Of a stretch of 64,000 nucleotides of DNA, positions 7,580 through 57,955 are shown one piece after another. A program made the translations under genes and the position numbers. Origin of the DNA: Planctomycetota bacterium (GTDB taxonomy: Bacteria > Planctomycetota > UBA1135); contig SHNF01000006.1 of NCBI GenBank assembly GCA_004295085.1, positions 287,675 through 351,674 on the forward strand, written 5' to 3'. The notes beneath the pieces are model-generated. The model was not told where the DNA came from and did no database searches. It saw only the letters and a list, made by a program, of their open reading frames with translations. Position 1 is the stretch's first letter, and every line of letters begins with the position of its first letter.

Positions 7580-7718
7580 GCGGAAGAAAACCGGAGGGGA
7601 AGGGGCGCGGCGCCGCTGCAGCGCTGCCACCGCCTGCGGCAATCGTACTCGGGATGCGCCGGACCCGCATGCGTCCGATAGGATCTGGCTTCGGGCCACG
7701 GGGCCCGTGCTGCCCACG

Positions 7719-9287: not shown

Positions 9288-9291
9288 CAGC

Positions 9292-9900: not shown

Positions 9901-9911
9901 TCTGCCCGGTG

Positions 9912-11999: not shown

Positions 12000-12040
12000 C
12001 GCGCCGTGCGCGACCGGACTGCTAGAATCGACTGCTCGCC

Positions 12041-12976
12041 ATGAAACCTGTCCTCCTTACCCTCTCCCTCATTGCCGGGGTGGCCCTGGCCGGGGGCGCC
12101 CGCGCCCAGGACCAGGCCGATCTCGTCAAGAAGCGCGACGAGAAGCTGGCCAAGCCGTTCGTCGCGCACGGCGGCTGGATCACGGACTACGACCAGGCGC
12201 GCGAGCAGGCGCAGAAGGAGGGCAAGCCCATCTTCGTCTACTTCACGCGCAGCTACGCGTATTGACCGCCCTGCGAAGCGCTGGAGAGTGGTGCACTCTC
12301 CACCCCGGAGTTCGCGGCGTTCACCAAGAAGGTCGTGCCGTTCCTGCACGTCACCACGCGCATCGAGGGCGTCAAGCATGACGGCCTGCTGTCCGAGAAG
12401 GGCGGCCGCGGCTTCCCGACGCTCATGTTCCTGGACGCCGAGGGCAGCATCCTGGCCCAGCAGGAGGACCGCGCGGTCACGGGCTTCGAGACCACTCTGG
12501 AGAACGTCAAGACTTACCTCGACCTGAAGACGCGCCAGGCCAAGGGCGAGAAAGGCCTGGAGCTGCCGCTCTTCATGGCCGAGCTCAAGCTCGGCCTCAT
12601 GAGCTACCAGGATGCCAAGTCCAAGGCCGAGACCTTCCAGAAGCTGAGCGAGGCGGAGAAGGCCCAGATCGCGGAGGCGTTGTTCGACCTGGAAGTGCGC
12701 CAGCTCATGGACGCCTTCAATCCGCGCTCGGAGGAGGGCAAGGCCGCGGCCGCGAAGCTGGTGGAATACGCCCAGGCCGGCAAGCAGCCGTCACCGGCGC
12801 TGCGCCTCAATTACTGGGGCCTGCTCAGCTACATCGCCACGGAAGTGAACAAGGACCCCGACCTCCTGGAGAAGTGCCTCACCAACCTGCGCGCCCTTCC
12901 GGAGAGCAAGGACTTCGAGGAACAGCTCCAGCAGATGGAGCAGAAGCTCCAGGAGATGCGCAAGGGCGAACCGTAA
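12041..12976 (+). CDS. periplasmic thioredoxin-fold protein with predicted selenocysteine (TGA 12263-12265) in a U-P-P-C redox motif, plus a C-terminal helical domain
   Basis: Listed ORFs 12041..12265 and 12335..12976 are in the same frame and are interrupted only by TGA. Read-through gives KPIFVYFTRSYAY-U-PPCEALESGALSTPEFAAFTKKVVPFLHV, which is the position of the first Cys of CxxC in thioredoxin-like proteins. Signal peptide MKPVLLTLSLIAGVALAGGARAQ. A SECIS-like hairpin follows. Confidence 0.7.
12282..12302 (+). promoter_or_regulatory. candidate bacterial SECIS hairpin
   Basis: Stem GGAGAGU (12283-12289) / ACUCUCC (12295-12301) is a perfect 7 bp (plus U12282-A12302). The loop is GGUGC. The stem starts 17 nt after the in-frame UGA. 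Confidence 0.55.
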
Positions 12977-12980
12977 GGCT

Positions 12981-15160: not shown

Positions 15161-15703
15161 ATGGGAGTGCTCCACCCTCAAACCGGCCCCGCCGCGCCTG
15201 ACGGGGACGCGCAGTGGCACGACCTGGTGTCGTGGGCCGAGTCGAACCTGCGCGGCCAGATCGAGCGCAGCCTTCCGGCCGGAGGGCCGATCAGCGCGAC
15301 CACCGTCATCCATTCGGCCCTGCGCCGCACGGTGGAACGGCGCGCACGCCTGCGCCATGGCATGCAGCACGCCCAGGCGTTCCTGGCCGGCATCGCCAAG
15401 CGCGTGCGCAGCGAGAAATTCCGGCGCGAGCGCCGCCTGTGCCGCAGCCCGGAGGGCGCGGTGGTGGTGGCGCTGGCGGACGGCGAAGCCGCGGGCGCGC
15501 CGGCCGAGTCGCCGTTGTGGGGCCTGGTGCTGGAGCTGCCGCCGAACCTGCGCGAGCTGCTGGAGTCCCTGTACCGGGAGGGCCTGACGTTCCGGGAGTA
15601 CGCGGCGCGCAGCGGCAAGTCGGAGAAGCAGGTGGAACGGATGCACCAGCGCGCCCTGGAGCAGCTGCGGCGCCTGTCGCGGTCGGCGGAAGAGCCGGTC
15701 TGA
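15161..15703 (+). CDS. ECF-type RNA polymerase sigma factor (kinase-associated type)
   Basis: C-terminal region-4 HTH LPPNLRELLESLYREGLTFREYAARSGKSEKQVERMHQRALEQLRRL. The N-terminal part resembles the ECF variant family usually found next to Ser/Thr kinases. It ends 13 nt before the kinase gene. Confidence 0.65.
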   Translation: MGVLHPQTGPAAPDGDAQWHDLVSWAESNLRGQIERSLPAGGPISATTVIHSALRRTVERRARLRHGMQHAQAFLAGIAKRVRSEKFRRERRLCRSPEGAVVVALADGEAAGAPAESPLWGLVLELPPNLRELLESLYREGLTFREYAARSGKSEKQVERMHQRALEQLRRLSRSAEEPV

Positions 15704-15716
15704 GCCGCGCGGAGCC

Positions 15717-18700
15717 GTGAAGCAGGCCCCCGGAGCGAGCGCGGCGACCGACCCCGGATCCGACGGCGCGAGCGGGAGCCGCGTGGCCGCGGCCTTGCGC
15801 CGGCGCCTGGAACGCGGTCCGGCGGCGGCGCCGGAGGAGCACGGCGGCGATGCCGAGCTCTCCGAGCTGTACCGCGTGCAAGGCCAGCTGCTGGGCGCAG
15901 CCGCGGCCCGAGGCGAGCCGCCGGTGGACCCGGGCGCGCCGCTGCCGCATCCGGGCGAGTGCCTGCAGGAGCGCTACGAGGTGGGCGCGTTCCTGAGCAG
16001 CGGCGGCATGGGCCTGTTGTACGAGGCCCACGACCGCGAGACTGGCGCCAGCGTGGCCTTGAAGACGCCGCGGCCCGGCTGCACGCGCGAGGAGCTGCTG
16101 CGCTTCATCCGCGAGGCCAGCCTGACGCTCCCGCAGCATCCCTGCCTGGCGCGCACGCTGGACCGCTTCACGCGCGGCCGGCGGCCGTATCACGTGCAGG
16201 AGCGGGTGCCGGGACGCTCGCTGCAGGAGATCCTGCAGGCGCGGCTGGAAGGGCGGCGCCCGGCGCACGCCGCGGAGGCGCCCTGGTTCGCGCCGCAGCC
16301 GCTGGCCCTGCACACCGCCGTGCACGCGGTGGTGCAGGTGGCGCAGGCCCTGGAGCGCCTGCACCAGGCCGGCATCGTGCATCGCGACCTCAAGCCCGGC
16401 AACATCTTGTGGCACGCCGAGGGCCGGCCGGTGCTGGTGGACTACGGGCTGGCGCTGCCGCGCGGCGGCCCGCTGCTGACCGGGCCCGGCCAGGCTGCCG
16501 GCACGGTCCCGTACATGGCGCCGGAGCAGTGGCAGGGGCGCGCGGTGGACGCCCGCGCCGACGTGTACGCGCTGGGCGCGACCTTGTGGGCGCTGATCAC
16601 CGGCACCCTGGCCACGGGCATGCCCTGGGGCGGCCGCCTGCTGCGCGGCAGCGAGCCGGTGCCGCCGGTGCTGCTCGCCATCGTGCAGAAGGCCATGGAG
16701 CCCAATCCACGCCGCCGCTTCGGCTCGGCCGCGGAGCTGGCGGCCGCGCTCGGCGCCTGGCTGGAGGACCGCGAGCCGGCAGGCTTGCACCCGTTCAACA
16801 CGCGCCTGCGGCGCTGGGCGTACCGCCACCGCCTGGCGTTCGCCTTCTGCGCCGGGGCGCTGGCCTTCGGGACCATCGTCTACCTGGGCGAGGAGTTCGT
16901 GCGCAAGAGCCGGGCGGCCGTGACCGCCCTGGAGGCCAGCATCGCGGCTTCCGCCCAGCAGATCGCGGAGTTCGAGCAGGCGGACCGGAGCGGGCCGGCC
17001 ATGAACGCGCGCAGCGACTTCCTGCAGGACTGGTTCGCGGACCACCTGCCGGCCGATCCGGAGCTGGAGAGCGAGTCCGCGCGCAAGCTCGTGTCGTTCG
17101 CGTACAACCTCAACCTGCGCATCGGGCGCCAAGAGCAGCTCCTGGTGTACACGCAGGGCGGCGCCGCGCACTGGTGGCGGGATGCAGCCGACGCGGTGCA
17201 GTCCGCCGGCGCGCTGCTCGCCAACGGGCGCGCGCAGGCCAGCGTGGAGGCGCTGCAGCGGGCGGCGCAGCGCTTTCCCAGGTCCAATCTCGCGCCCCTG
17301 TTCCCGGCGGCGGCGGCCATCCTGCAGCACTTGCAGGCGTTCGAGCGCCTCCCCGCGCCGACGTCCGCGCCGCTGCTGCGGGCATCGGAGGGCGGCGGAG
17401 TGGCCTGGGTGGACGCCGAGGGCGCGCTGGCGCACGCGCGCGTGGCCGGGGGCGGCTTCGAGCGCGAGACCGTGAGCCCGGCCGGCGCCTGGCGGCACGG
17501 GACCTTGGGCGCCTACGCGCACCTGCGCCGCGACGGCGCCGACTTCGGCAGCATTCTGTCCTGGGAGACGCGCAACGGCTCCGCGGATCCGCCGCAGGGT
17601 CTCTATTACGTGCCGGTCGGCGGGCCGCCGCAGCGCATCCTGGCCTGGGACGCCTTCGACCGCGTGCGCTCGCCGTCGGCACTGGCCGTCGGCCAGTTGG
17701 ACGGCGACGCCGAGCCGGAGCTCGTGGTGGGCACGGCCTGGGGCAGCCGCAGCCTCCTGCTCCTGGACTGCATGGACGGCCGCTGGCACCATCGCATCCT
17801 GGATCAGCGCGGCGACGACGTGGAGAGCGTGCGCATCGCCCCGCAGGCGGACGGAGCGCAGATCTGGGTCGCGGTGTCCGTGTGGAGCCTGCGGAACCAG
17901 GGCCTGCGTTGCAAGGTGCTGCAGCTGGATCCAGCACTCGAGCGCGTGGAGACGGTGGACGCGCTCCCCCTCGGCGCGCTGCACAGCTGGGAGCCCGTGC
18001 GCGGCTGGGGCGAGGTCCACTCCGTGGCCGGCTTCCACAGCACCCGCGACGCCATCTTCTTCGGCGAGACCTACGCGCGCTGCCACTCCGGGGAATGCGT
18101 GCTGCTCGGCTCCAGCCCGGCGCTGGGCTTGCGCGTGGTGCGCAGCCTGTACAGCCTGCCCGGCGTCGAGGTGGCCGTGGGCGACACCGAGGCCCGGCCC
18201 GCGGACCTGGACGGTGACGGCCGCGACGAGATCCTGCTGCACTGGGTCTGGGAGCAGCGCCGCCACGCCATGCTGGTCTTCGGCTATGCCCGCGGCTCCA
18301 AGGTGGAGTTCATCGAGCTCCCGCTGCCCCAGGCCATGGCCGAGGCGCAGATCGGCGACCTGGACGGCGACGCCCGCCCCGACCTGTACTGGCTGGAGGG
18401 CGCCGACGTGTGCCTGCTGCGGGGCTTCGGCGCGCCGTCGCTGGCGCAGCCGGCCGCTCCGCTGCCGGCGCCGCAGCACCGGCGCCTGGTGCTGGTGCGC
18501 GGCGAAGCAGCGGCCTGCGCCGGCCAGCTCGACCCGCGCGCCGCCGGCGCGCGAGCCGGCGTCTTCCAGGCGCGCCTGCGTCTGGTGCGCAGTGACTTCG
18601 ACGCCAGCGCCGTCTGGGAGCTGCGCAACGCCGCCGGCCAGGCGCTGGCGCGCCTGCGGCTGGCGACCAGCGGTGGCGGCACCACTTACCGCCACGAGGC

Positions 18701-19256
18701 CTTCCTCCAGGTCCGCGACGCCGACGGCACGCTGCGCTCCGGCGGCTCCTTCGCGGTGGCTCCCGGAATGTGGCTGGCGCTCGCCATCGAGCCGGATGCG
18801 CGCGGCCGTTGGCGCCTGGGCCTGGCGCCGGACAGCGGCGCAGCCGGTCTGCAGCCGCTGCGAGCGGCTTTCACCGCGGAAGTGGACGCGGGCTGGAGCT
18901 GGGAATGGCGCCCGGAAGGCAACCAGGGCGTCGCCGAGCGCCGTGACTTCGGCGCCGTGCTGGCCCTGGACTGGATGGGGCCGGGGCAGCCACGCCCGGC
19001 GCTGACCAGCGCGGAGGCGCTGACGGCGGAGAGCGTGTGGCGGCGCATGGAAAGCGCCCGCACGGAACGCGATTTCGGCGCGTGGAAACAGGCGCGACGC
19101 GAGCTGGAGACGGTCGCGGGGCCGCCGCGGGCGGGTGCCGCCGACACGCAGGCACGGGTCCCGCTGGCGCGCTACTACCTGGAGGAATACGGCCGGCTGG
19201 GGCTCATCCTGCACGAGGACGCGGATCCGCACTGCCCGCTGGAAGCGGAGCCTTGA
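15717..19256 (+). CDS. membrane Ser/Thr protein kinase with a large extracytoplasmic domain containing FG-GAP-like units
   Basis: Kinase motifs GGMGLLYEA..VALK, HRDLKPGNIL, DYGLA, GTVPYMAPEQ. TM helix LAFAFCAGALAFGTIVYLG. C-terminal strings VGQLDGDAEPELVVG, ADLDGDGRDEILL, IGDLDGDARPDLYW. Confidence 0.9.
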   Translation: MKQAPGASAATDPGSDGASGSRVAAALRRRLERGPAAAPEEHGGDAELSELYRVQGQLLGAAAARGEPPVDPGAPLPHPGECLQERYEVGAFLSSGGMGLLYEAHDRETGASVALKTPRPGCTREELLRFIREASLTLPQHPCLARTLDRFTRGRRPYHVQERVPGRSLQEILQARLEGRRPAHAAEAPWFAPQPLALHTAVHAVVQVAQALERLHQAGIVHRDLKPGNILWHAEGRPVLVDYGLALPRGGPLLTGPGQAAGTVPYMAPEQWQGRAVDARADVYALGATLWALITGTLATGMPWGGRLLRGSEPVPPVLLAIVQKAMEPNPRRRFGSAAELAAALGAWLEDREPAGLHPFNTRLRRWAYRHRLAFAFCAGALAFGTIVYLGEEFVRKSRAAVTALEASIAASAQQIAEFEQADRSGPAMNARSDFLQDWFADHLPADPELESESARKLVSFAYNLNLRIGRQEQLLVYTQGGAAHWWRDAADAVQSAGALLANGRAQASVEALQRAAQRFPRSNLAPLFPAAAAILQHLQAFERLPAPTSAPLLRASEGGGVAWVDAEGALAHARVAGGGFERETVSPAGAWRHGTLGAYAHLRRDGADFGSILSWETRNGSADPPQGLYYVPVGGPPQRILAWDAFDRVRSPSALAVGQLDGDAEPELVVGTAWGSRSLLLLDCMDGRWHHRILDQRGDDVESVRIAPQADGAQIWVAVSVWSLRNQGLRCKVLQLDPALERVETVDALPLGALHSWEPVRGWGEVHSVAGFHSTRDAIFFGETYARCHSGECVLLGSSPALGLRVVRSLYSLPGVEVAVGDTEARPADLDGDGRDEILLHWVWEQRRHAMLVFGYARGSKVEFIELPLPQAMAEAQIGDLDGDARPDLYWLEGADVCLLRGFGAPSLAQPAAPLPAPQHRRLVLVRGEAAACAGQLDPRAAGARAGVFQARLRLVRSDFDASAVWELRNAAGQALARLRLATSGGGTTYRHEAFLQVRDADGTLRSGGSFAVAPGMWLALAIEPDARGRWRLGLAPDSGAAGLQPLRAAFTAEVDAGWSWEWRPEGNQGVAERRDFGAVLALDWMGPGQPRPALTSAEALTAESVWRRMESARTERDFGAWKQARRELETVAGPPRAGAADTQARVPLARYYLEEYGRLGLILHEDADPHCPLEAEP

Positions 19257-36067: not shown

Positions 36068-36970
36068 CTACAGGATCGGCTGGCTGTTCAGGTTGGACAG
36101 CTCGCCCAGCGCGGCGGCCTGGATCCAGGCGTGGCGGCCGGAGCCAGCGGCCGGCACGTTGACCACGAGCGAGGCGGCACCGGCGGCGTCCGCAAAGGCG
36201 CTGCCGATCAGAGCGGGCTGGCCCAGCTCCAGGGTGACGCCGAGCTGAGGCACGAACGTCGCTCCCGTTCCGGTGAGGCTGCGCGCGAAGAACACGCGCC
36301 GGCCCGGATCGGCTCCCGTGACGCTGAGCGTGGCCGGCTGGCCGCCCGCCAGCGGAGTCACGTCGAGCCGCATCTCGTAGGTCTCCACGTCGAGCCGCGG
36401 CAGCCGGTTGACGTTCGGCGCCGTGTTGTTGCTGTAGAAGTAGCCCAGCCGCGAGATCCCGGCGCTCTCATCCTGCACGCGGAACAGCCAGCCGTGATTG
36501 GGAAACACACCGCTCGCCTGCTCGCGCACGATGGCGGTGGCGTCCCAGCTCACCCAGCCGGTATGGAAGATGTCACCTGCCTCGGCCCTGGACCAGGCGC
36601 GCGGGTCGTAGCCGGGCTGGTTGTTCCAGGTCACGATCGCCTCCGTCCAAGGCGCGGTGACGGCGTGCAGCTCGCAGTCGATGCCGCCGGCGGCCTGTTC
36701 CGTCGCGTACTGGTAAGCCGAGAACCTGGCGGATCGCACGAGCAAGGGGTCGGTGGGGAGGCCGGACAGATTGAACTGGACCAGGGTGCGGATGTTCCCC
36801 AGGCCCCAGAACTCGCCGCGGCCGAACCAGAGATCCTGGGTCCCGAAGCTGCTGTCGGGATTGATGTCGCGGACGAAGCTGTCCTGGGTCGGATTGAGGG
36901 TCACGAGGGTCTGCGCCGCAACGGCGGGGCAGAAGGCGGCGGCAAGCAAGAGACCGGTGAACGGACGCAT
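36068..36970 (-). CDS. secreted protein with a DNRLRE-like N-terminal domain
   Basis: Signal peptide MRPFTGLLLAAAFCPAVAAQ. The pattern NPTQDSFVRD...RTLVQFNLSGLP...ARFSAYQY...HAVTAPWTEAIVTWNNQPG is typical of that domain as I remember it. Confidence 0.6.
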   Translation of the reverse strand: MRPFTGLLLAAAFCPAVAAQTLVTLNPTQDSFVRDINPDSSFGTQDLWFGRGEFWGLGNIRTLVQFNLSGLPTDPLLVRSARFSAYQYATEQAAGGIDCELHAVTAPWTEAIVTWNNQPGYDPRAWSRAEAGDIFHTGWVSWDATAIVREQASGVFPNHGWLFRVQDESAGISRLGYFYSNNTAPNVNRLPRLDVETYEMRLDVTPLAGGQPATLSVTGADPGRRVFFARSLTGTGATFVPQLGVTLELGQPALIGSAFADAAGAASLVVNVPAAGSGRHAWIQAAALGELSNLNSQPIL

Positions 36971-37094
36971 GGTAGGAATGGCACGAGGGTCAGGCGAACA
37001 AGCAGCATGACGAAGGAGGCTCTCCGTGAGCGGGCGGCGTGTTCGCTCCCGAATCCCGGAGAGCCATGGTGATCAGCTCATCCCTCTGGTCAGT

Positions 37095-37874
37095 CTAGGG
37101 GACGGTGTCGAAGGGCTCGGAAGACGAGCTCGGCTCCGGCGCGTTCAGGAACAGCTTCAGGAAGCGCGCCCGGCAGAACTTCTCCGCATTGAGGATGCGG
37201 ATCGTCACCTCCGGCAGTGAGCCGGTGGAGTAGCCCGTCAGTTCCTTGACCTCGAGCACTTCGAAGGACACGGTGCCGAGGTTGGCGCCCTTGAGGCTGC
37301 CCTGGAGCGGGTCGTAATTGATGCTGACGTCGCCGTCGTAGACGACGGCACAGACCCTGCGGCCCACCAGCATGTCGAGCCCGGTGGCGCGCAGCGGCGT
37401 CACGAGCGGAATGTTGTCCAGCAGGACTTCGGGACTGTCTCCCGTGCCGAGTCCGGGCCCGACGTTGTGCGGGTACTCGATCCGGTTGTTGCCGAGGTAG
37501 TTCTCCAGGCCGTCCGAAGTGGGGCCGGCGGCGTCCCAGGAATCCGGGATCACCTTCACGGCGAACCAGCCTTCGTCCCCGACCGTGCCCGAATGCAGCT
37601 TGATGATGTCGCCGGGATTGGCGTCGAAGAAGCGCAGCTCGCTGCGCACGGCGAGGTCCGCAATGTCGTCGTTGACCTCTTTCTCCGAGAAGAAGTTCGG
37701 CGGGTTGCCGTTGTCGATGGCGTCCTCATCGAGGATGAGGAACAGCGGGTGCGCATTGGCAGCCGCGATGTCCAGGGACTGAGCCGGAGGCGCCGTCAGG
37801 AACACGCCGGCCGTTCCGGCCCCCATGGCCAGAGCGGCGAGGAACAGGCGCGGATGGATTCTGGGCACGAACAT
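37095..37874 (-). CDS. secreted hypothetical protein
   Basis: Signal peptide MFVPRIHPRLFLAALAMGAGTAGVFLTAPPAQS. Acidic, protein-like composition. Lower GC than the flanks. Confidence 0.6.
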   Translation of the reverse strand: MFVPRIHPRLFLAALAMGAGTAGVFLTAPPAQSLDIAAANAHPLFLILDEDAIDNGNPPNFFSEKEVNDDIADLAVRSELRFFDANPGDIIKLHSGTVGDEGWFAVKVIPDSWDAAGPTSDGLENYLGNNRIEYPHNVGPGLGTGDSPEVLLDNIPLVTPLRATGLDMLVGRRVCAVVYDGDVSINYDPLQGSLKGANLGTVSFEVLEVKELTGYSTGSLPEVTIRILNAEKFCRARFLKLFLNAPEPSSSSEPFDTVP

Positions 37875-38093: not shown

Positions 38094-41000
38094 TCAGCGC
38101 GGGTCGCCGAAGTAACGGAATGCCGCCCAGTAGTACGGGTCCGGCAGGGCGCTCCGGACGCGGCGCTTGGCCTCGCGCAGGGCTTCCGGTTTTCTCAGCC
38201 GCGCATGCCCGAAGAGGCCGTCGTAGAAGGCGCACATCAAGTGGACGGTGACGTCGCTGTCCACCTGCCACGTGCTTGCCACGACCGCAGGAACGCCGGC
38301 GCAGTGGAATCCGATGGGCAGGCTGAGGTCGGAGTAGAGTCCAGCGCCGCCCGTTCCGCTCTCACATGCGGACAAGACCGCGAGCTCGCAGCCCAGCAGC
38401 TTTCTCGGCCAGTGCTCCAGCACGTCCTGGAGCCGCAGAAAGCCATGTTCCTCCTCTCCGGAGCCTCCGGGAACACTGAGAGCCAGGCCGGCGCTGTAGG
38501 GACGCAGGCTGTCCCCGATGCGCCCATGAGCGGCGATGTGGACGATCCGCTTGCCTTCCGCCCGGGCCAGGACATTCGCGGCCGTCGCCTGGTCCTGCAC
38601 GAGGAGCTCGGCCTGGGCCCCGAACTGCGCGAGGATGCTGCGGATGATCTCCACCTCGTGGCCGGTCTCCGGAAGAGGTGGCAGCCCTGCCGGATTGGCT
38701 CGGATGCTGGCCAGGACCTCGCCCGCTTCCATGTCGCCTGCGTGGGCACGCAGAGTTATCTCCTCGCGATCCAACCGGCTGATCGCGGGGAAGCTGGGAT
38801 CGCCGACCAGCAAGGCCGACCAGGAATCCAGGCTCGGGTCCCTGCGCTCCAGGCTGCGGAGGTACTTCAGGACGGATCCAGACGGCAGGTAGGCGACCAC
38901 CGGGACCCGGTCCAGGAGGAACCGGCAGTCGGCCCAGCGAGCACCCGCTTCTGTGACCAGGGCCTCGAACGGCAGCCTGTCGAGCGGTCCGTCCGGTACC
39001 AGATAGAGCGTCTGGACGCCTTGGCTCCGTGACTGGATGGCGGGAGGGATCAGCGTGCGGTAGAGAGCATGCAGCTCGCGGATGAGCTCCGATTCCAGCG
39101 CTTGTGCCGGCGCAACGAAGGGCTCCGCGGACGGGTCCGCAGGGCTTCTGCTCACCGCGTTCATGGTCGTGGCAATCCGGGACGCGAGCTCGGTCATGGC
39201 CTCCGCGCCCTCCGTCACCGGATGGGCCTCGATGCCGCCGCTCCCGGCGGGTGGCACGAGGAACAGGATCAATTCGGTATCGGACCAGGCAAAATAGAGC
39301 AGAAGCTCGTCCTCGCCCAGCAGGGCCTGGAGCTCGACGGCGCCGGCCGGATGTCCTTCGGCGATCATCCTTCTCCAGCGGCTGGAGGCTGCGCGCTCGG
39401 CCATCCACTCATCACGTACGGCGAGGGCCAGCTCCCGGCTCCCTGCCTGGATCTCGGATTGGACGGCGTGGGTTTGCCCGTCCTTGGAAGCCAGCAGGTC
39501 CGTGACGCGCTGGTGCGCTTCGGCCTTCCTCTGCCGGGCCGCCTCGGCCAGGGCTTCGAAGGTCCGGACGTCCTCCTGCTGCCCCGCGACCCGGACTTCC
39601 ACGTCGCCGAGGGCCCCGCTGAGCAGATCGAGGACGAGACGAGCGCGCCCGCGTTCCTGCGCCTCCAGCGCCGTCCCGGGCATCGACAAGGCGCAATAGG
39701 TCCGGCTCAGCGCATCGGCGATCGACTCGAGGCCGTGGTACCTTCCGAATGCCGCACGATCCTGGAGGTCGGCGAGGCCGCTGCGAGCGTGCTCCGCGTA
39801 CGTGAGAGCGGATTCCAGCAAGTCCCGCGCCCGCGGCCAGTCTTCGAGTCCCATGGCCGCTATCCCGAGGAGGAAGTCATCCAAAGCCAGGAAGGGATGG
39901 TCTTCTCCGAAAAAGGCTCGATCGGAGTCTCGCACCGTGTTCAGCCGCTCGCTCGCTGGTTCGTACTTGCCCTCCAGCAGCAGGAGCTCGCAGATCCTGA
40001 AGAGGACCGTTGTGGCGCTTCGTGGGTCGAGACCCTCACGATAGAGCGCGTAGGCGCTCTCGAGCTCGCTTTCGGCGAGGTCTAGGGCGCCGGCCCGGAA
40101 ATGAACTCCGGCGTTCGTGACGTGGAAGTTCGCCAGTCGCATCCAGTGCTCGCGGTCCCCGACCAGGGAATCCAGGGCCGCTCTGGCCAGATCCGCATAC
40201 GACCTGGCAACCTCGACCGATCCCAGCCGCGCGTGAATGTCCGAGAGCGAGCGCAGCACCTCGAAGACCCTCCGCGGGTCCTCCCGGGCGCTCTCGTAGA
40301 CCCGCAGCGAGTCCACTGCATAGTGAAGCGCGGGCTCGAGCAGGTCCTTGTTCCTGCAGGCGCCCGCCAGGTCGTTCAACGCGTCTGCATAGCGTGGATG
40401 ACGGCGTCCGAGGACCTCCTCGTACTGGACTCGCACCGTCTCCAGGAGCTGCATCGCCTGGTCCAGATCGGCACCGGCCAGGAGGAGCACCTTGGCGCGG
40501 AGGTGCAGCAGGTCCGTCGTCTGTGGATCGTCCGGGCCGAGGATCCGGCTGCGGATCTCCTGGGCCTGCCGGCACGCATCCAGCAAGCTTGCAACCTCGC
40601 CGCTCTCCGCTCGCGTCGGGCCGATCAGGCGCGGAAGGCTCGCGACCACGCCGGCCCGCAAGCGCTCGCTTTCAAGGAAGGATGCCTGCTGATCCGGCGT
40701 TGCGGCGGCGAGCCGGACGGCAAGCTGTTCGGCGCGCCGCGCGTCGCCGATCTCCCACCATTCCGAACCGTCCTGGAGGCCTGCCGTCGCGCCGGCCTGT
40801 TCCTCGACCTCGGCGAAGAGCCGCTGCGCCTCCTCGCGCGCTGCCGAGAACTCACCGCTGCGGATCCGGCTCCCCAGTGCGGCCACCCGCTGTCGGATCA
40901 CGGAGCGGTCCAGCAGGATGCCGAACTTCGGCTCCCGCTCCTCCGTGACGCGGAGCTCGTGGACCCTGGCTGCACACCGGAAGATCTTCTCCAAGGCCTT

Positions 41001-41744
41001 CTGGAGCTCGGAAGCATTCGCGCTGGACCGCATGAGCTTCAGCACCTTCTCGGTCGAGTCCTCCTCGATCGGTGCGCGCGAGACCAGCGCAACAAGGAAG
41101 CTCTTCTCGGGAAGCTCGCGTCCACCGGGAACCTGGCAGGAGTAGAAGGAGGTGCGACCTTCGGAGACCTTGCGGAACCGCCGGTCGATGGTCTCCACGG
41201 CATCCGGCTCCAGGGTGGCCAGGAACACCCAGAGGTGAGCGTCGTCCACGGTGGACAAGGCCAAGGGCAGCTCCTGCCCCGGCGCGACGACGAGCGCCTC
41301 CAGCTCGCCGTCCGCGGGCTCGCCGCTGGCGCGCCGGGTGGAGTCGCCCAGCACGCTGAAGTGAATGGTCCCGAGCGACGGCGCTGGTTCCTCGCCGGTT
41401 CCGACGGCCCGGTAAATCGCGAAGCCGGCTCCGGCAAAGAGCAGGAGCTGTGCCGCCAGGCGCAAAAGGCCGGGGATCCGCCGCGGTCGGGCCGGCGGGC
41501 GCCCGCGGCCGGGGAGCGGCGCCGCAGCCGGCGCGCCTTCCATTCCAGGACGGCGCACGAATTCCGCAGCGAGTGCGCACGCCAGCCCACGGCACTGCGC
41601 GCAGGCGGCCAGGTGGCGCCGGATGAGCCCCTCTTCCTCCTGCATCAGGTCTCCCGAGAAATAGGCGACGAGGGCGTCGATCGTGGGACAGGGTCCGTGC
41701 ACTGCCTCGGGCTCGGGAGCTTCCTCGCGCCGTTCGCTCGTCAT
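38094..41744 (-). CDS. membrane anti-sigma factor (zinc HxxxCxxC type) fused to TPR-like repeats and a C-terminal CHAT (caspase-fold) protease domain
   Basis: ATG at 41744. CPTIDALVAYFSGDL...RRHLAACAQCR (H-x3-C-x2-C). TM LLRLAAQLLLFAGAGFAIY. Long helical-repeat region. CHAT strings LYLVPDGPLDRLPFEAL, IVHIAAHGR, CELAVLSACESGTGG, GVPAVVASTWQVDSD, PYYWAAFRYFGDP. Confidence 0.9.
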   Translation of the reverse strand: MTSERREEAPEPEAVHGPCPTIDALVAYFSGDLMQEEEGLIRRHLAACAQCRGLACALAAEFVRRPGMEGAPAAAPLPGRGRPPARPRRIPGLLRLAAQLLLFAGAGFAIYRAVGTGEEPAPSLGTIHFSVLGDSTRRASGEPADGELEALVVAPGQELPLALSTVDDAHLWVFLATLEPDAVETIDRRFRKVSEGRTSFYSCQVPGGRELPEKSFLVALVSRAPIEEDSTEKVLKLMRSSANASELQKALEKIFRCAARVHELRVTEEREPKFGILLDRSVIRQRVAALGSRIRSGEFSAAREEAQRLFAEVEEQAGATAGLQDGSEWWEIGDARRAEQLAVRLAAATPDQQASFLESERLRAGVVASLPRLIGPTRAESGEVASLLDACRQAQEIRSRILGPDDPQTTDLLHLRAKVLLLAGADLDQAMQLLETVRVQYEEVLGRRHPRYADALNDLAGACRNKDLLEPALHYAVDSLRVYESAREDPRRVFEVLRSLSDIHARLGSVEVARSYADLARAALDSLVGDREHWMRLANFHVTNAGVHFRAGALDLAESELESAYALYREGLDPRSATTVLFRICELLLLEGKYEPASERLNTVRDSDRAFFGEDHPFLALDDFLLGIAAMGLEDWPRARDLLESALTYAEHARSGLADLQDRAAFGRYHGLESIADALSRTYCALSMPGTALEAQERGRARLVLDLLSGALGDVEVRVAGQQEDVRTFEALAEAARQRKAEAHQRVTDLLASKDGQTHAVQSEIQAGSRELALAVRDEWMAERAASSRWRRMIAEGHPAGAVELQALLGEDELLLYFAWSDTELILFLVPPAGSGGIEAHPVTEGAEAMTELASRIATTMNAVSRSPADPSAEPFVAPAQALESELIRELHALYRTLIPPAIQSRSQGVQTLYLVPDGPLDRLPFEALVTEAGARWADCRFLLDRVPVVAYLPSGSVLKYLRSLERRDPSLDSWSALLVGDPSFPAISRLDREEITLRAHAGDMEAGEVLASIRANPAGLPPLPETGHEVEIIRSILAQFGAQAELLVQDQATAANVLARAEGKRIVHIAAHGRIGDSLRPYSAGLALSVPGGSGEEEHGFLRLQDVLEHWPRKLLGCELAVLSACESGTGGAGLYSDLSLPIGFHCAGVPAVVASTWQVDSDVTVHLMCAFYDGLFGHARLRKPEALREAKRRVRSALPDPYYWAAFRYFGDPR

Positions 41745-41769
41745 GGCCGGTACCAAGGGAGCCGCACTC

Positions 41770-42777
41770 CTACACCGGAGAATCCTGAGTGCACTTGTCC
41801 TCCTCCTTGTCCTTGAGGTAGCGGAGCGCCCAGCGACAGAATCGTCGAATCGGCTGGTACAGGCCCTGGCTGCTCTCGGAAAGGTCCAGATCGAACTCCT
41901 GGCAGGCAACGACATAGTCGCCCGGGGGGAGCGCTTTCAGGAGCTCGGCCTTCACGGCCTCGCCCAGGGCTTCCTGGCAGCGCGTCTTGCGCCGGGAGAA
42001 AGTCCCGGGATCGATGCCGAGCCTGGCGGCCAGGACCTGCTGCGGCCGCCTCGAGAGCACCCAATAGCAGTATGACTTCACATCCTCGAGCCGCAGCGCC
42101 TCCTTGTGCACCGTGCGCACCATGGCGTCGTACACGAGACTCCCGAGGTGCCTGGCGTCGATCTGCTCCTCTGCCGCAGCGGCCGAAGGCAGCACCAGCG
42201 GCCACGCATTGGCGAGGCCCAGGTCGCCTTCACGGGCTTCGCGTGAGCGTCCTCTGGCCCGGCCCCTAGACGACCACTCGTTCCAGACAAACCCGGCCAG
42301 CCACTTCTCGACGGGCGCCTTGGCCTCGTAGGTGAAGAAGGCCGGCGTCCGGCTCCTCCGGAACGCCCCGAAAGTCAGGGTCTCGACGGTTTCTTGCGCC
42401 AGGTCCTCTGCCTCGGCCCGGCGGGCCCCGAGATACTGATACAGCTGGACGATGCGCTGGGCATGGAGCCGCCGAAATGACTCCATGGCTTCCTCCCGGT
42501 CACCGTGCTGGGACGCAATGAGAAGGACGAGGTCCGCGCGGGGCGTCATGGCAAGGAGGTCCTTGAGCCGCTGCGTCGTGGGCGCGATGCCGGCCCTTAC
42601 TAGTCGCTCCTCGAGCGCCTCGATTGCGGCTTCCACGAAGATTTCCTCCGGCAGGCGCCGCAAGCCGTACTTCTCGACCCCCTCCCGGAAGGCCGCCGCC
42701 AGATCCCCCGCCAGCGCCTCCGCGTGGGTGGCGGACGAGGATTCCGGGTAGCCCTTCATGCGTTGAAACGGCGTCAT
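41770..42777 (-). CDS. atypical ECF-like sigma factor with N- and C-terminal extensions
   Basis: Region-2-like RLHAQRIVQLYQYLGARRAEAEDLAQETVETLTFGAF. Region-4 HTH WVLSRRPQQVLAARLGIDPGTFSRRKTRCQEALGEAV. At 335 aa it is much longer than ordinary ECF sigmas. It sits 25 nt upstream of the anti-sigma gene. Confidence 0.65.
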   Translation of the reverse strand: MTPFQRMKGYPESSSATHAEALAGDLAAAFREGVEKYGLRRLPEEIFVEAAIEALEERLVRAGIAPTTQRLKDLLAMTPRADLVLLIASQHGDREEAMESFRRLHAQRIVQLYQYLGARRAEAEDLAQETVETLTFGAFRRSRTPAFFTYEAKAPVEKWLAGFVWNEWSSRGRARGRSREAREGDLGLANAWPLVLPSAAAAEEQIDARHLGSLVYDAMVRTVHKEALRLEDVKSYCYWVLSRRPQQVLAARLGIDPGTFSRRKTRCQEALGEAVKAELLKALPPGDYVVACQEFDLDLSESSQGLYQPIRRFCRWALRYLKDKEEDKCTQDSPV

Positions 42778-43151
42778 TCTAGCTCGGTCGGAGGCTCAGC
42801 GAGCCTTCCAGCGCGCCGAAGGGCGGCGGCTGCAGCTTCCAACCCAGCCCCAGCCGCGCGCGGAGCTGGAAAAAGCGGCTCGAACCTGCAAGGAGCGCCG
42901 GCCTCATTCCACAAGAGTGGGAAGCAGGAAGTCCGTGGCGCCGGCTGGCCGCGTGATCCTCCAGCTCCTCCTTTCACCTCCAGCCCCTGTTCACCCCGAA
43001 ACCGACCTGACTGAGGAGATGTTCCGCTTCCCCGCTGCCATGGACCTCCAGGAACGGAGGCAAGGACGCGGGCCCTGGCCGTAGGATGTGCGGCCGATTT
43101 TCGCGCGTACCTCACAACCCTGGAACTGCGGTGCCCGATAGGAGACTCCTG

Positions 43152-44873
43152 ATGCTGCGTTTCGTCGCCTGCTGCTGCCTGTTCCTGGCCCCGGCCGGGT
43201 CTCTGCTCGCGCAGAACGCCCGGGAGCCTGCCCAGGTGCCGGATTTCGGCGGACAGCCGACCGGCGCTGCCTACGCGACTGGCGTGGAAGATGGCTACGC
43301 GGTCGCCGCTCATACTTATCCGGATACTCCCGGCGTGACCGTCGCCTTCCTGGATGAGCGTGGAGAGCCGTGGTCGCAGCCGGTCGTTCGCTACTCCGAT
43401 CCGAATTGCATCGGGCTGTGTCCGACGATCATGGTCATCGAGGAGATCGTCTTCGTCTGCTGGATCGAGCGGGTTACCAACGGCTCCGTCCAGGTCGATG
43501 CCCTTTACTACGACGTGACGGAAGAGAATGGTGAAGTCTGGAGAGGCCCGGAGCAGATGGCCGGAGACCCGACCATGGCGAGCGAGTCTGTCCTGGATTT
43601 CGCCGTGACGCGCGGGGCCGACCAGAACGGGCGGAGCTACATCTACGTCCTGGCGCTGCTGGAGGTCCAGGGCGCCCCGAACGACGAATTGGTGCTCTTC
43701 GCTGCGAATGCCGAGGGCGGTCCCTTCTCTCCGCCGGTGCACGTCCCCGACCGGATGCCGCAGGCCGCCGACGTGGACCAGATCGCCCTCTCCGCTTCCC
43801 CGGGCCGGATTCACGTGGCCTGGACGGACGACCGGGCGGCAACCGCGCCGGCCAACGATCTCTACTACAGGAGCCTGCTGGCCGGCACGCCGAACTTCGC
43901 CCCCGAGCAGAGATTGACGCTCCACAGTCAGGTGTTCGATGGCGATCTCCTCCTGGCCGCGGAGCGTGACCGTGTAGCGGCCGCCTGGCTGGCAACGCTC
44001 CCGTCCGCGAACCAGATCCTGCGGGCGATCGCCTCGGATGATGGCGGCAGCACCTTCGGAGCCGCGCAGATCGTTGGCGGCTACGCGCCGCCCGGGGACG
44101 ACGTCGACGATCCCAGCCTGGCGGTCGGTAGGACGGACAGGTCCGCCATGCTCGCCTGGTCCGATGATCGAACGGGTCAGGACATGGTCTACGCGGCCGC
44201 GCTGGCCCAGGGCTCCTCGCAGTGGAGTGCCGACAGTCTTGTCTTCGACCGCCCGGCTTCCAGGCCGACTGTGGCTCCCTCGAATCTCCCCGGCGGTCCG
44301 GTCCTGGCCACCGCCGTCGCCCCCGATGGTTATTTCGGGTTCTTCTCCTTCGACCAGACCCGTTCGTGGACCTCGGCCTTCCCGCTGGCCCCGATGGACC
44401 TTGGATTCGAATCCCTCGTGTCCCTCGCGCACGACAGCCGGTACAACGACTTCACGATTTCCTGGCTCGCATTGGCAGGCGGACAGCTGCATCAGTACGT
44501 CGGCGGTGTCCGGCCGCAGACGTTGAACATCGACGGCGCGATCTCCCAGGGTGCTCCCGCCTCCTTCGAGGTGATCTACTTTCCCACGTACGAAGCGGGA
44601 CTCGCCTTTCAAGTGCTGATCTCCGGCGGGTACGGGACTCTGCGTCTGCCCGGAGATGGCAGGTACGTCGGACTGCGGAACGACATCCTGTTCCGGAGCT
44701 TCCTCCTTCGCCCGGAGTTGCGGGGCGTCCTCGATTCCACCGGAGCGGGCCGGACCCAGCCGATCCAGATTCCCCTCCCCGCCGGAACACGGCTCTATCT
44801 GGTCGCGGTGAGCGGGAACGCGGCGGGTTTCGGCTCGATCACCGACGTGCTGCAGACCACCGTGGGTCCCTGA
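43152..44873 (+). CDS. secreted BNR/sialidase-like beta-propeller protein
   Basis: ATG at 43152 with GGAG 8 nt upstream. Signal peptide MLRFVACCCLFLAPAGSLLAQ. Asp-box-like strings ASDDGGSTFG and TEENGEVWRG. Repeated VAW/LAW..DDR strands. Confidence 0.65.
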   Translation: MLRFVACCCLFLAPAGSLLAQNAREPAQVPDFGGQPTGAAYATGVEDGYAVAAHTYPDTPGVTVAFLDERGEPWSQPVVRYSDPNCIGLCPTIMVIEEIVFVCWIERVTNGSVQVDALYYDVTEENGEVWRGPEQMAGDPTMASESVLDFAVTRGADQNGRSYIYVLALLEVQGAPNDELVLFAANAEGGPFSPPVHVPDRMPQAADVDQIALSASPGRIHVAWTDDRAATAPANDLYYRSLLAGTPNFAPEQRLTLHSQVFDGDLLLAAERDRVAAAWLATLPSANQILRAIASDDGGSTFGAAQIVGGYAPPGDDVDDPSLAVGRTDRSAMLAWSDDRTGQDMVYAAALAQGSSQWSADSLVFDRPASRPTVAPSNLPGGPVLATAVAPDGYFGFFSFDQTRSWTSAFPLAPMDLGFESLVSLAHDSRYNDFTISWLALAGGQLHQYVGGVRPQTLNIDGAISQGAPASFEVIYFPTYEAGLAFQVLISGGYGTLRLPGDGRYVGLRNDILFRSFLLRPELRGVLDSTGAGRTQPIQIPLPAGTRLYLVAVSGNAAGFGSITDVLQTTVGP

Positions 44874-55408: not shown

Positions 55409-55411
55409 GGC

Positions 55412-57955
55412 GTGGATCCCGAGCCCGCGGAGGGGGCCGGCGCGCTGCTGGAGCAGATCCTGGAGGGCGGCATCGCCGACGTGGACGCGTTCCTGGCCGC
55501 CCAGCCGGCGGGGCTGGCGGCGCAGGTGCGCCAGGCGCTGCTCGACTTCCGGCGCCTGGACGGCGGCTTCGGCCCCGGCCTGCGCGGCCCGAGCGCCGCC
55601 GGCGGGGCGGTGCTCGGCGATTTCCGGCTGCTGCGCCAGCTCGGCCGGGGCGGCATGGGCGAGGTGTGGGAGGCCGAGCAGCTGTCGCTGCGCCGGCGCG
55701 TGGCCCTCAAGCTCCTGCGCCCGGAGCAGGTGGCGCTGCCGCAGCGCCTGGCGCGTTTCCGGCGCGAGGCCGAGGCCGGGGCGCGCCTGCGCCATCCGCA
55801 CATCGTGGCCGTGTACGCGGTTGGGGAGCAGGAGGGCGTGCACTACATCGCCGAGGAACTGGTGCCGGGCGGGCGCACGCTCGCCGACGAGCTGGCGGAG
55901 CAGCGCCGCCTGGCGCACGTGTCCGGCGACCACTACGAGCGGCTCGCGCGCCGCCTGCTCGGCATCGCCGAGGCCCTGGTCTACGCGCACGCGCACGGCG
56001 TGCTGCACCGCGACGTCAAGCCTTCCAACATCCTGATGGAGGAGGACGGCCGCCTCAAGATCGGAGATTTCGGCCTGGCGCGCCTGCTGGACGATCCGTC
56101 CCTGTCGCGCACCGGCGAGGTCTCGGGCACGCCGTTCTACATGTCCCCGGAACAGACGCGCGGGCGCCCTCAGGACGTCGGCCCCGGCAGCGACGTGTTC
56201 TCGCTGGGCGCGACCCTGTACGAGGCGCTCACGCTGGCGCGCCCCTTCGACGGCGACACCAGCCACGAGATCCTGGAGAAAATCCGCACGCTCGATCCGC
56301 CGGATCCGCGCCGCTTGCGCGCGCGCGTGCCCGCCGACCTGGCGGTGATCTGCCTGCACGCGCTGGAGAAGGACCCGCGGCGTCGCTACCCCGGCATGGC
56401 GGACCTGGCGGCGGACCTGCAGCGCTTCCTGGCGCACCAGCCGATCCGGGCGCGCCCCCCCGGACCGGTCAGCCGCGCAGCGCGCTGGATGCGGCGGCAC
56501 CCGGTGGTCGCGGTCGGCGGCTCCATCGCCGCGGCCGCGTTCGTGCTGGTGACGGCGCTCCTGCTCGAGAACCGGTCCGCGCGCCGCGCCGCCGAGCAGG
56601 CGGCGGCCGACGCCAGCGTCGAGGCCGAGACCGCGGAGAAGGTCGCCTCCGTGCTGGAGGACCTGTTCCTCAACGCCGCGCCGGGCAAGGTGCCGCAGCA
56701 GGTGAGCGCCGCCGAGCTGCTGGCGCGCGGCGTCGGCGACGTGGAGAAGCTGGCGGCGGAGCCGCGGGTGTACGCGCGCCTGCTGAGCACGCTCAGCCAC
56801 GTGTACTGGGGCATGGAGGCGCTGGAACCGGCGGAGGCGCTGGCGCTGAAGGCGGAGGCGGCCACGCGCTCGGCCCCCGGACCCGGCAGTCCGGAGCACG
56901 GCCAGGCTCTGCTCGACCTCGCGCACGTGCGCCACGCGCAGGACCGCCTGGAGGAAGCCGAAGCCCTGGGGCGCGAGGCGCGCGGCATCCTGCTGCGCAG
57001 CGTCGGCGCCGCCGACCGGCGCAGCGCCCGCGCCGCCAACTTCCTGGGCCAGGTGTTGATCAGCCTGGGACGCGTGCAGGAAGCCGAACAGGTGCTGCGC
57101 GCGCAGGTGGACCTGCCGGCGCGGCAGCTGCCGCCAGCGTGGATCGAGTGGTGCGTGGCGCGCAGCGCGCTCGGCAGCGTCTACCTGGACGCCGGGCGCC
57201 TGCTCGAGGCCGAGCCGCTGCTGCGCGAAGCGCTGGCGGTGGCCGCGGAGCGCCGCGGCCCCGAGGACGACTTCGTCATGGAGCTGCGCCGCGAGCTGGC
57301 CATGCTGGAGCTGCGCCAGGGGCTCGCCGAGCAGGCCGTGCCCGCCCTGGAGGCGGTGCTGGCCTGGAAGGAGCGCCTGTACGGGCGCGACGCGCTCACG
57401 ACCCTGGCCCTGGCCGCCGACCTGGCCGCCGGCTACAGCGCGCTGGGGCGCGCGGACGAGGCCGCCGCCGCCTACCGGCGCGCACTGGACGACCACCTGC
57501 GCGTGCTCGGCCGCGAGCACCGCGAGAGCCTGCGCCTGACCATCAATTACGTCAGCTTCTGCCTCAGCCACGACGACCTGGACAGCGCGCGGGAGCTGCT
57601 GGCGGATCTGCCGGAGCGGGTGGACGCAGCGTATCCGGACGACGTCTCCACGATCTGGCACGTGCGCTTCCAGGTGGCCTACGTGCTCCTGCTCGACCAG
57701 CCCGACGAGGGCCTGCGCCGGTTCGAGGAGCTCCTGCCGCAGATGCGCGCGAAGCTGGGCGCCCACCACGAGATCGTGGTGCGCGCCGCCTGCCTGCTGG
57801 CCACCGAGTACGCGGACCGCGGCCGCGGCGGCGCGGCCGAGGCGCTGCTGGTGGAGACCCTGGAGGCGGCGCGCGCGCAGCGCGGGAAGGACGACCGGCT
57901 CACGCGCTCGGTCGCCGAGATCCTGGCGGAGCTGCGCGGCGCGGCGGTCGAGTAG
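55412..57955 (+). CDS. membrane Ser/Thr protein kinase with a C-terminal TPR-repeat domain
   Basis: GRGGMGEVWEA..VALK, HRDVKPSNIL, GDFGLAR, GTPFYMSPEQ. TM VAVGGSIAAAAFVLVTALLL. TPR-like repeats to the end. It starts 3 nt after the sigma gene stop. Confidence 0.9.
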   Translation: MDPEPAEGAGALLEQILEGGIADVDAFLAAQPAGLAAQVRQALLDFRRLDGGFGPGLRGPSAAGGAVLGDFRLLRQLGRGGMGEVWEAEQLSLRRRVALKLLRPEQVALPQRLARFRREAEAGARLRHPHIVAVYAVGEQEGVHYIAEELVPGGRTLADELAEQRRLAHVSGDHYERLARRLLGIAEALVYAHAHGVLHRDVKPSNILMEEDGRLKIGDFGLARLLDDPSLSRTGEVSGTPFYMSPEQTRGRPQDVGPGSDVFSLGATLYEALTLARPFDGDTSHEILEKIRTLDPPDPRRLRARVPADLAVICLHALEKDPRRRYPGMADLAADLQRFLAHQPIRARPPGPVSRAARWMRRHPVVAVGGSIAAAAFVLVTALLLENRSARRAAEQAAADASVEAETAEKVASVLEDLFLNAAPGKVPQQVSAAELLARGVGDVEKLAAEPRVYARLLSTLSHVYWGMEALEPAEALALKAEAATRSAPGPGSPEHGQALLDLAHVRHAQDRLEEAEALGREARGILLRSVGAADRRSARAANFLGQVLISLGRVQEAEQVLRAQVDLPARQLPPAWIEWCVARSALGSVYLDAGRLLEAEPLLREALAVAAERRGPEDDFVMELRRELAMLELRQGLAEQAVPALEAVLAWKERLYGRDALTTLALAADLAAGYSALGRADEAAAAYRRALDDHLRVLGREHRESLRLTINYVSFCLSHDDLDSARELLADLPERVDAAYPDDVSTIWHVRFQVAYVLLLDQPDEGLRRFEELLPQMRAKLGAHHEIVVRAACLLATEYADRGRGGAAEALLVETLEAARAQRGKDDRLTRSVAEILAELRGAAVE

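Follow-up and report, generated by a model that had tools for sequence, protein, structure and literature searches.

The locus described here raises the question of whether a sigma factor and a membrane anti-sigma factor that carries its own caspase-like protease domain form a signalling pair, and whether such a pair is a new kind of switch. The window, that is, the whole 64,000 nt stretch analysed, covers positions 287,675 to 351,674 of contig SHNF01000006.1 (Planctomycetota bacterium, assembly GCA_004295085.1) and has a G+C content of ~72 %. Its open reading frame (ORF) list places a divergent extracytoplasmic function (ECF)-like sigma factor of 335 aa at 41770..42777 on the minus strand, an assignment based on weak sequence scores, AlphaFold2 (AF2) and Foldseek results and profile relatives. 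After a gap of exactly 25 nt this gene is followed on the same strand by that of a 1216 aa DdvA-like single-pass membrane anti-sigma factor fused to tetratricopeptide repeats (TPRs) and a CHAT domain (38094..41744, with its ATG at 41744 and its end at 38094), assigned from Pfam, AF2 and Foldseek.

A preliminary description of this DNA had reported the pair with the same spacing and the same length of the large protein, both of which are confirmed by the ORF coordinates, and had stated that no characterised example of the fusion was known. The latter statement has to be withdrawn, as DdvS/DdvA (MXAN_7289/MXAN_7288) of Myxococcus xanthus, an ECF sigma factor and a membrane anti-sigma factor, was described in 2018 and characterised further in 2024 (PMC6061681, PMC11506125). 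The design itself is already known from that pair, and the window pair is a distant variant of it, not a new kind of switch. By analogy, we estimate at roughly 60 % the probability that the window encodes a DdvS/DdvA-type signalling pair of an uncultured bacterium in which self-cleavage by the CHAT domain would release the sigma factor.

Architecture of the two proteins

An AF2 model was obtained for aa 17–1216 of the large protein (pLDDT 74.4, pTM 0.69), and its order of elements was a three-helix N-terminal bundle, a transmembrane helix, a linker, a beta-rich domain, a TPR superhelix and the CHAT domain. The input alignment was without the CHAT orthologues of two related loci (L004 and L005; L and P labels are our numbering of related loci and proteins), which were also not returned by the profile search of the large protein collection, where TPR-rich candidates crowded the list. 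All coordinates given below for the two genes are on the minus strand.

The caspase-fold CHAT protease domain occupies aa 813–1216 (38097..39308) and was assigned from the Pfam match, the catalytic dyad and a match to DdvA. The Pfam CHAT profile matched aa 890–1214 with E 1.1e-51, covering profile positions 3–289 of 289, and the dyad strings reported in the preliminary description were located as HIAAHG with His1073 (codon 38526..38528) and LSACESG with Cys1127 (codon 38364..38366). The TPR superhelix (aa 280–808, 39321..40907) was matched by TPR_12 in four stretches (E 2.6e-17) and, in the PDB, by the TPRs of kinesin light chain; its helices were modelled pairwise with pLDDT mostly >85, and the best-kept segment is HPRYxxxLNDLAGxCR at aa 449–464. 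The cytoplasmic anti-sigma domain (aa 17–65, 41550..41696) contains the motif residues C19 and H44-x3-C48-x2-C51 and AF2 helices at aa 22–29, 35–47 and 49–63. The zf-HC2 profile scored 20.8 bits on the whole protein, which is under its gathering score of 22.2, and 24.3 bits, above that score, on the N-terminal 114 aa alone, and the family profile of the large protein weakly matched RsiW (5wuq_C, E 0.015) among PDB sequences. The zinc anti-sigma motif, TPRs and CHAT domain proposed earlier are all supported by the profile and structure-prediction checks.

Between the anti-sigma domain and the TPRs lies the predicted transmembrane helix (aa 91–114, 41403..41474), which AF2 places at model residues 75–98. 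Its hydrophobic core at aa 92–111 is the only hydrophobic helix in the protein, and the position is hydrophobic in all orthologues. The arginine-rich segment RGRPPARPRR precedes it, a positive-inside signature shared by all orthologues; by the positive-inside rule, an N-in/C-out orientation is predicted, which would place the TPR–CHAT part outside the cytoplasm, as had been proposed. The predicted periplasmic juxtamembrane region (aa 115–279, 40908..41402) was delimited from AF2 and is conserved in the family. It consists of a low-confidence, possibly disordered linker (~aa 115–168) and a family-specific beta-rich domain (~aa 169–264); model residues 50–153 have pLDDT <50, and strands E153-206 and E242-248 were predicted at moderate confidence. 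By its likeness to the DdvA linker (PMC11506125), this region is a candidate cleavage region.

The public gene call for the large protein (P0001, 1220 aa) starts 12 nt farther upstream, a difference that is immaterial. A longer form starting at 41915 (1273 aa) was rejected because of the 146 nt overlap with the sigma gene that it entails, and because the N-termini of the orthologues fit a start at 41744.

DdvA is the only characterised anti-sigma factor with a TPR–CHAT part (PMC11506125). Its extracytoplasmic portion of ~900 residues contains TPRs and a CHAT module (PMC6061681), and the structures solved in 2024 by cryo-electron microscopy and nuclear magnetic resonance (PDB 8rot, 8rw5) revealed an arrow-shaped dimer, a three-helix anti-sigma domain with a CHCC zinc site and a periplasmic TPR–CHAT part with its His–Cys dyad (H862/C907) in a resting state (PMC11506125). 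When the model of the window protein was compared with the PDB using Foldseek, 8rw5 and 8rot were second and third by E-value (8rw5, E 8.4e-13 over ~1000 columns) and had the highest TM-scores among full-length TPR–CHAT matches (0.51 and 0.46, both normalised to target length), at ~15–16 % identity in the Foldseek alignment. A family profile built from the CHAT domain only had DdvA (8rot_B, E 2.6e-8) as its sole significant match among PDB sequences, and this match, within DdvA residues 829–947, aligned His1073 and Cys1127 with the HG and ACE motifs of DdvA.

The likeness extends to gene order, with the sigma gene first and translational coupling in most orthologues, and to an anti-sigma domain of ~70 aa with CHCC ligands, after which come one transmembrane helix, juxtamembrane residues of low order, the helical repeats and, at the C-terminus, the His–Cys CHAT domain. 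The two proteins also differ. The window protein has 1216 aa compared with 991 for DdvA, and it has the beta-rich juxtamembrane domain where the DdvA scaffold is all-helical. Its CHAT domain of ~400 aa covers the full Pfam profile, whereas that of DdvA has 290 aa, an incomplete active site and no three-helix motif (PMC11506125); in the model, the ~110 additional residues may include this motif. Set against DdvS, the window sigma factor (335 aa) has conserved extensions at both its N- and its C-terminus.

The top Foldseek match by E-value was the type III-E craspase subunit Csx29 (8eey_B, E 1.2e-13), which shares the TPR–CHAT fold and is likewise a caspase-like protease that ultimately controls an ECF sigma factor. 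Csx29 is a soluble cytoplasmic protein that is switched on by the RNA-guided Cas7-11 complex and cleaves a separate protein, Csx30, whereas the window protease is predicted to be periplasmic and membrane-tethered, is fused to the anti-sigma domain and has no cas genes in the window. Craspase CHAT domains were not significant matches of the CHAT-only profile (E >= 0.25). The Csx29/Csx30 analogy drawn in the preliminary description is accordingly not the closest one, DdvA being closer. No cas genes, other defence genes or CRISPR-like arrays were found in the 64 kb window by Pfam, PADLOC and array scans, and PADLOC gave zero matches for the module and its neighbours. A craspase-like CRISPR-associated role was rejected on this basis, and the earlier remark that cas genes are absent holds.

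Among classical regulated intramembrane proteolysis pairs, RseA/sigma-E, RsiW/sigma-W and MucA/AlgU resemble the window pair in having a cytoplasmic anti-sigma domain of three or four helices, which may or may not contain zinc, a single transmembrane helix and an extracytoplasmic sensor; the model of the 335 aa protein matches the sigma-E/RseA and AlgU/MucA complexes, and the anti-sigma profile matches RsiW as noted above. In these pairs a distinct protein (DegS, PrsW or AlgW) serves as site-1 protease and the extracytoplasmic part is small, whereas in the window protein the protease domain is part of the anti-sigma factor itself. Human, yeast and worm separases were also among the top Foldseek matches (E 1e-7 to 6e-12), in keeping with their architecture of helical repeats and a CHAT domain. 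Separase is a eukaryotic, cytoplasmic or nuclear protein regulated by securin and phosphorylation and, unlike the window protein, has neither a membrane anchor nor a link to a sigma factor.

The 335 aa protein consists of an N-terminal helical extension (~aa 1–79, 42541..42777), a predicted sigma-2 domain (~aa 80–175, 42253..42540), a disordered linker (aa 176–204), a predicted sigma-4 domain (~aa 205–282, 41932..42165) and a C-terminal helical extension with a conserved RxFCRW motif (aa 283–335, 41773..41931). The ECF opening (ADLVLLIASQHGDREEAM...AEDLAQET) begins near aa 80, and the ECF-typical strings GDxxA...AEDLxQET and WL and the region 4.2 helix-turn-helix are present. The Pfam scan gave no match at default thresholds; weak matches to Sigma70_r2 and r4_2 (E ~0.03–0.16) were seen in the protein and its orthologues, in the expected order (r2 at aa 104–134 and r4 at ~aa 210–260), and NCBIfam sigma70-ECF matched under its cutoff with E 2.7e-4. 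The protein is thus under all curated cutoffs, and its extra helical domains at both ends depart from the minimal ECF layout. Nearly all Foldseek matches of its AF2 model (pLDDT 79.9) in the PDB were ECF sigma factors (9m9e_F, 5uxx_C, 1or7_A and 8z6g_B), with probabilities of up to 1.0, and they included the sigma/anti-sigma complexes 1or7, 5uxx and 8z6g. When a profile of five family members was searched against 1.84 billion representative proteins, 159 were recovered at E <= 1e-3, and Sigma70_r4 was found in 40 and Sigma70_r2 in eight of the top 55. The fold matches and profile relatives support a sigma-2/sigma-4 core in this protein and favour its earlier description as sigma-70/ECF-like despite the weak scores.

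The N-terminal extension (~78 aa, three helices) and the C-terminal extension (~50 aa, two helices with RxFCRW) are both kept in orthologues and predicted by AF2 with high confidence, and are therefore not start-codon artefacts. The extensions described earlier are real, with lengths corrected from about 90 to ~78 aa at the N-terminus and from about 55 to ~50 aa at the C-terminus. The same N-terminal extension was observed in a wider, apparently undescribed group of ~300 aa sigma-70 proteins (P0113–P0255; loci L013 and L014), represented by the 159 proteins above, most of whose matches start at position ~15–20 of the sigma profile. For one member of this group, P0113, the next gene encodes a 330 aa zf-HC2 anti-sigma factor, and a 1161 aa TPR_12 protein is encoded nearby.

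Conservation of the pair and its divergent neighbour

The family is small, with ~10 loci. Its sigma factors form five clusters among 5.8 billion proteins, comprise seven representatives at E <= 1e-30 among the 1.84 billion proteins and were found in three species among 185,579 reference genomes, all of them Planctomycetota metagenome-assembled genomes (MAGs); a scan of JGI metagenome contigs for the sigma factor returned zero loci. All organism-labelled members of the family are Planctomycetota MAGs, which lie outside the range reported for DdvA-like anti-sigma factors, namely the Myxococcota and one Comamonas (PMC11506125).

In seven loci (L001, L003, L004, L005, L007, L011 and L012; L003 being the contig of L006 and L004 that of L008) a gene for a membrane TPR–CHAT protein of 1197–1238 aa directly follows the sigma gene, and the short partial contigs L009 and L010 agree with this arrangement as far as they reach. 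Across the window and all loci recovered, the sigma family was found only beside the TPR–CHAT family, so that the genome survey suggested in the preliminary description finds the two genes together in every related locus. The two genes overlap by 4 nt in six loci (L004, L005, L009, L010, L011 and L012), which suggests translational coupling in the orthologues.

The suggested check on dyad conservation gave a similarly clear result, as His1073 and Cys1127 are invariant in all six family members that reach them. The flanking strings HxAxHGR and VLSAC are also invariant, while the members share 29–40 % identity overall. The zinc site shows another pattern. CHCC ligands are present in three of the ten members (the window, L001 and L003) and gone in the remaining seven (L004, L005, L007, L009, L010, L011 and L012), which keep the same helices, and helices 1 and 2 of the anti-sigma domain are conserved across both forms (xLDTxxAYFxGxLLxEEE). 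The occurrence of both forms in one family provides a natural series on what the zinc site adds. In this respect also the family differs from DdvA, since most of its members are without zinc ligands.

A third gene recurs with the pair. The divergent gene at 43152..44873 on the plus strand encodes a secreted protein of 574 aa from the ATG at 43152, a start that fits the N-termini of its orthologues; the assignment is based on a signal peptide, weak BNR signals and conservation of the locus. Homologues of 569–601 aa occupy the same divergent position in L001, L003, L004, L005, L011 and L012, while L007 has an unaligned 642 aa ORF and L009 and L010 have partial unaligned genes in that position, so that a divergent secreted-protein gene is present in every locus long enough to show it. 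BNR_2 of Pfam matched three of the seven members, with a best E of 8.6e-6, the window protein itself being unmatched, and a profile of the BNR-like protein gave only noise against the PDB. We regard the product as a conserved third member of the module with weak BNR/sialidase-like beta-propeller signals, and as a candidate target of the sigma factor or periplasmic partner of the large protein. As an ever-present secreted neighbour, it is the obvious candidate for the missing signal, substrate or target. The DdvS/DdvA family again differs: DdvA itself has an adjoining antiphage island with CBASS and type III-B CRISPR-Cas under its control, but only a subset of DdvA-like pairs is located near defence systems (PMC11506125), so that this trait is not strictly defining, and near the window module there is no CBASS or CRISPR-Cas system, the conserved BNR-like secreted protein being found instead.

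The novelty of the window family does not lie in the principle of the switch. It represents a very distant lineage, the labelled members of which are all Planctomycetota. Its sigma factor is extended, its CHAT domain is longer and matches the whole Pfam profile, and its juxtamembrane domain is peculiar to the family; the zinc site has often been lost, the pair is not linked with defence genes, and a secreted partner gene is a fixed neighbour. DdvA has so far been the only anti-sigma factor with a built-in caspase-like protease to be studied, and a second, distant lineage in another phylum allows the features kept in both to be compared; the lineage further shows that antiphage defence is no fixed part of the design. 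Because the organisms are uncultured, the value of the family is comparative and for heterologous reconstitution.

Several loci have peculiarities of their own. In L001, the closest orthologue, the CHAT gene (7744..11259) is split into ORFs of 683 and 462 aa that are 75 nt apart. The split reflects a pseudogene or frameshift, or else an error of assembly; the same first part also occurs on another contig, L002. In L011 the module is followed at 9611..13005 by genes for a conventional 210 aa ECF sigma factor and an 887 aa Ser/Thr kinase with TPRs, which may be a second signalling pair beside the first. Outside the family, an H-x3-C-x2-C motif, a transmembrane helix and a TPR–CHAT part are likewise joined in two unrelated metagenomic proteins of uncultured organisms, P0003 (1331 aa) and P0036 (1127 aa). 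The gene of each starts 4–5 nt after, or overlaps, a small unannotated one (261 aa; 115 aa partial). The anti-sigma/TPR–CHAT fusion therefore recurs sporadically, beyond DdvA and the present family.

Proposed signalling and alternative readings

For DdvA it has been proposed that, on a signal, the CHAT domain cleaves DdvA itself in trans at site 1, after which RseP cuts and the sigma factor is released, and it was found that deletion of ddvA activates the regulon and that truncated DdvA is degraded in an RseP-dependent manner (PMC11506125). The proteolytic switch put forward in the preliminary description is the mechanism already proposed there. Applied to the window pair, the model would operate as follows. 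At rest, the cytoplasmic three-helix domain of the anti-sigma factor would tether the sigma factor to the inner membrane, in the window protein with zinc bound via C19, H44, C48 and C51, and the bulky periplasmic TPR–CHAT part would keep a site-2 intramembrane protease off the transmembrane helix. A cue in the periplasm, most likely a protein bound by the TPR superhelix, would turn the resting CHAT domain on, and the latter would cut the juxtamembrane region of the anti-sigma factor, in cis or in trans within a dimer, so that the transmembrane helix would no longer be shielded. The anti-sigma factor would then undergo intramembrane proteolysis, its cytoplasmic domain would be degraded, and the sigma factor thus freed would transcribe its own operon and, most plausibly, the divergent gene for the BNR-type secreted protein. 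The architecture, topology signal, dyad conservation, gene pairing, coupling in orthologues and similarity to DdvA are observed; from the analogy with DdvA we infer that the sigma factor is bound, that the CHAT domain is an active protease which cuts its own polypeptide and that a site-2 protease takes part, and likewise the cue and the regulon.

A number of results weigh against this model. Activity or self-cleavage of the CHAT domain has never been observed in DdvA, and mutation of its dyad was without phenotype in unstimulated cells (PMC11506125). Whole-protein phmmer and whole-family profile searches of the PDB returned kinesin-light-chain TPRs and a weak match to RsiW and did not return DdvA, and no PDB match was obtained with P0029, a myxobacterial TPR–CHAT protein that might have linked the family to DdvA. 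Given the low identity and the lack of a whole-protein link, the shared architecture could stem from an independent fusion; the likeness to DdvA is compatible with either distant homology or independent joining of anti-sigma and TPR–CHAT parts. The sigma factor is atypical, and its homology is built on weak sequence scores and on a fold match with E 7.8e-3 at best (~8e-3) and low TM-scores, modest values that we attribute to the free orientation of its two domains. Control by zinc or redox state cannot be general, since seven of ten family members are without the ligands. Finally, when eight divergent intergenic regions were searched for an ECF-type promoter in common, no k-mer was enriched above shuffled controls. 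An (A/G)ACTCC-like string, noticed on visual inspection of some of the loci, was likewise unsupported by k-mer enrichment and was rejected, and a scan of the module for sigma-70 promoters and terminators gave no signal above shuffles.

The divergent gene and the fuller CHAT domain allow a bolder interpretation, which we consider possible but put forward only tentatively. The BNR-like gene, the extended sigma factor and the anti-sigma–TPR–CHAT protein may form a periplasmic protease-gated module that arose independently of DdvS/DdvA and does not serve phage defence, with the BNR-like propeller as a co-sensor or substrate of a fully competent CHAT domain and the sigma extensions as a second layer of control. 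If true, caspase-like anti-sigma factors would include a second class with a mechanism of its own.

The main alternative to self-cleavage, though on balance unlikely, is that the substrate or activating ligand of the CHAT domain is another periplasmic protein, with the BNR-like protein as first candidate, and that a conventional separate site-1 protease takes off the periplasmic domain or binding alone transmits the signal. The constant presence of the BNR-like gene beside the pair, where other neighbours differ, is what would be expected of a functional partner, and TPR domains usually bind proteins. Separase and craspase, the known CHAT proteases found alongside DdvA among the top fold matches, cleave other proteins, and the ~400 aa CHAT domain with its full Pfam profile may be a complete stand-alone protease, whereas the 290 aa domain of DdvA has an incomplete active site (PMC11506125). 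The divergent gene would, however, be conserved just as well if it were simply the main target of the sigma factor, no interaction or cleavage motif was identified for the CHAT domain and the BNR-like protein, and the poorly predicted, possibly flexible juxtamembrane stretch fits self-cleavage equally well.

It is rather improbable that the CHAT domain is a catalytically silent scaffold, such that the TPR–CHAT part would be only a sensor and steric shield and an unrelated protease, or else zinc-site oxidation, would release the sigma factor. This possibility is consistent with the resting geometry of the DdvA dyad and the wild-type behaviour of its mutants (PMC11506125), and with the CHCC site of the window protein, which is of the redox-sensitive zinc-binding anti-sigma (ZAS) kind. 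The invariance of His1073, Cys1127 and their flanks at such low overall identity nevertheless argues for selection on catalysis, and with most family members having lost the zinc ligands, redox release cannot be the common mechanism. Least probable is that the 335 aa protein is some other helix-turn-helix regulator or adaptor and the 1216 aa protein a membrane TPR–CHAT protease whose zinc motif has another role, for while the former has no Pfam family at default thresholds, neither it nor its family profile matches any PDB sequence and its best fold match is modest, its fold matches are nearly all sigma factors, its region 2 and region 4 matches are in the right order together with ECF strings, its profile relatives carry sigma-70 domains and its downstream partner has a recognisable anti-sigma domain.

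Other neighbouring genes

The preliminary description had expected the regulon to include the adjacent secreted proteins and had given 36068–37874 as one interval; this interval contains two ORFs, 36068..36970 and 37095..37874. The gene at 37095..37874 (minus strand), 219 nt downstream of the anti-sigma gene, encodes a secreted protein of 259 aa with a signal-peptide-like N-terminus and no Pfam or NCBIfam match. Homologues follow the CHAT gene in L001 and L004 and are not found there in L005, L011 and L012, which makes it a possible lineage-specific accessory gene and operon member. The gene at 36068..36970, downstream on the same strand, encodes a secreted 300 aa protein with a carbohydrate-binding-type DNRLRE/CBM96 domain (NCBIfam 1.5e-26, Pfam 1.4e-18) and was not seen adjoining the module in other loci. 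The expected regulon is thus partly supported: the conserved divergent gene is a plausible member, the distribution of the other two genes lends it less support, and no shared promoter motif was found.

The remaining neighbours vary from locus to locus, with no evident connection to the pair. Those in the window are metabolic (oxidoreductases, ApbE, an aldehyde dehydrogenase, a GntR regulator and fatty-acid hydroxylases), and the Pfam matches across the window are to metabolic and other non-defence genes, including kinases and peptidases.

Base composition changes around the module. The third-position G+C of its three genes (38094..44873) is 0.82–0.84, compared with 0.89–0.96 in flanking genes, and the 36–44 kb stretch is 4–6 points lower in overall G+C, which suggests relaxed codon bias, low expression or later acquisition.

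Other genes of the window are in keeping with a planctomycete-like genome and include two very large Ser/Thr protein kinases on the plus strand (15588..19253 and 55409..57952), one with FG-GAP repeats and one with TPR_12 repeats. A further protein with FG-GAP repeats (5576..7891), a DUF2961 protein and one of the beta-helix/PKD type are also encoded.

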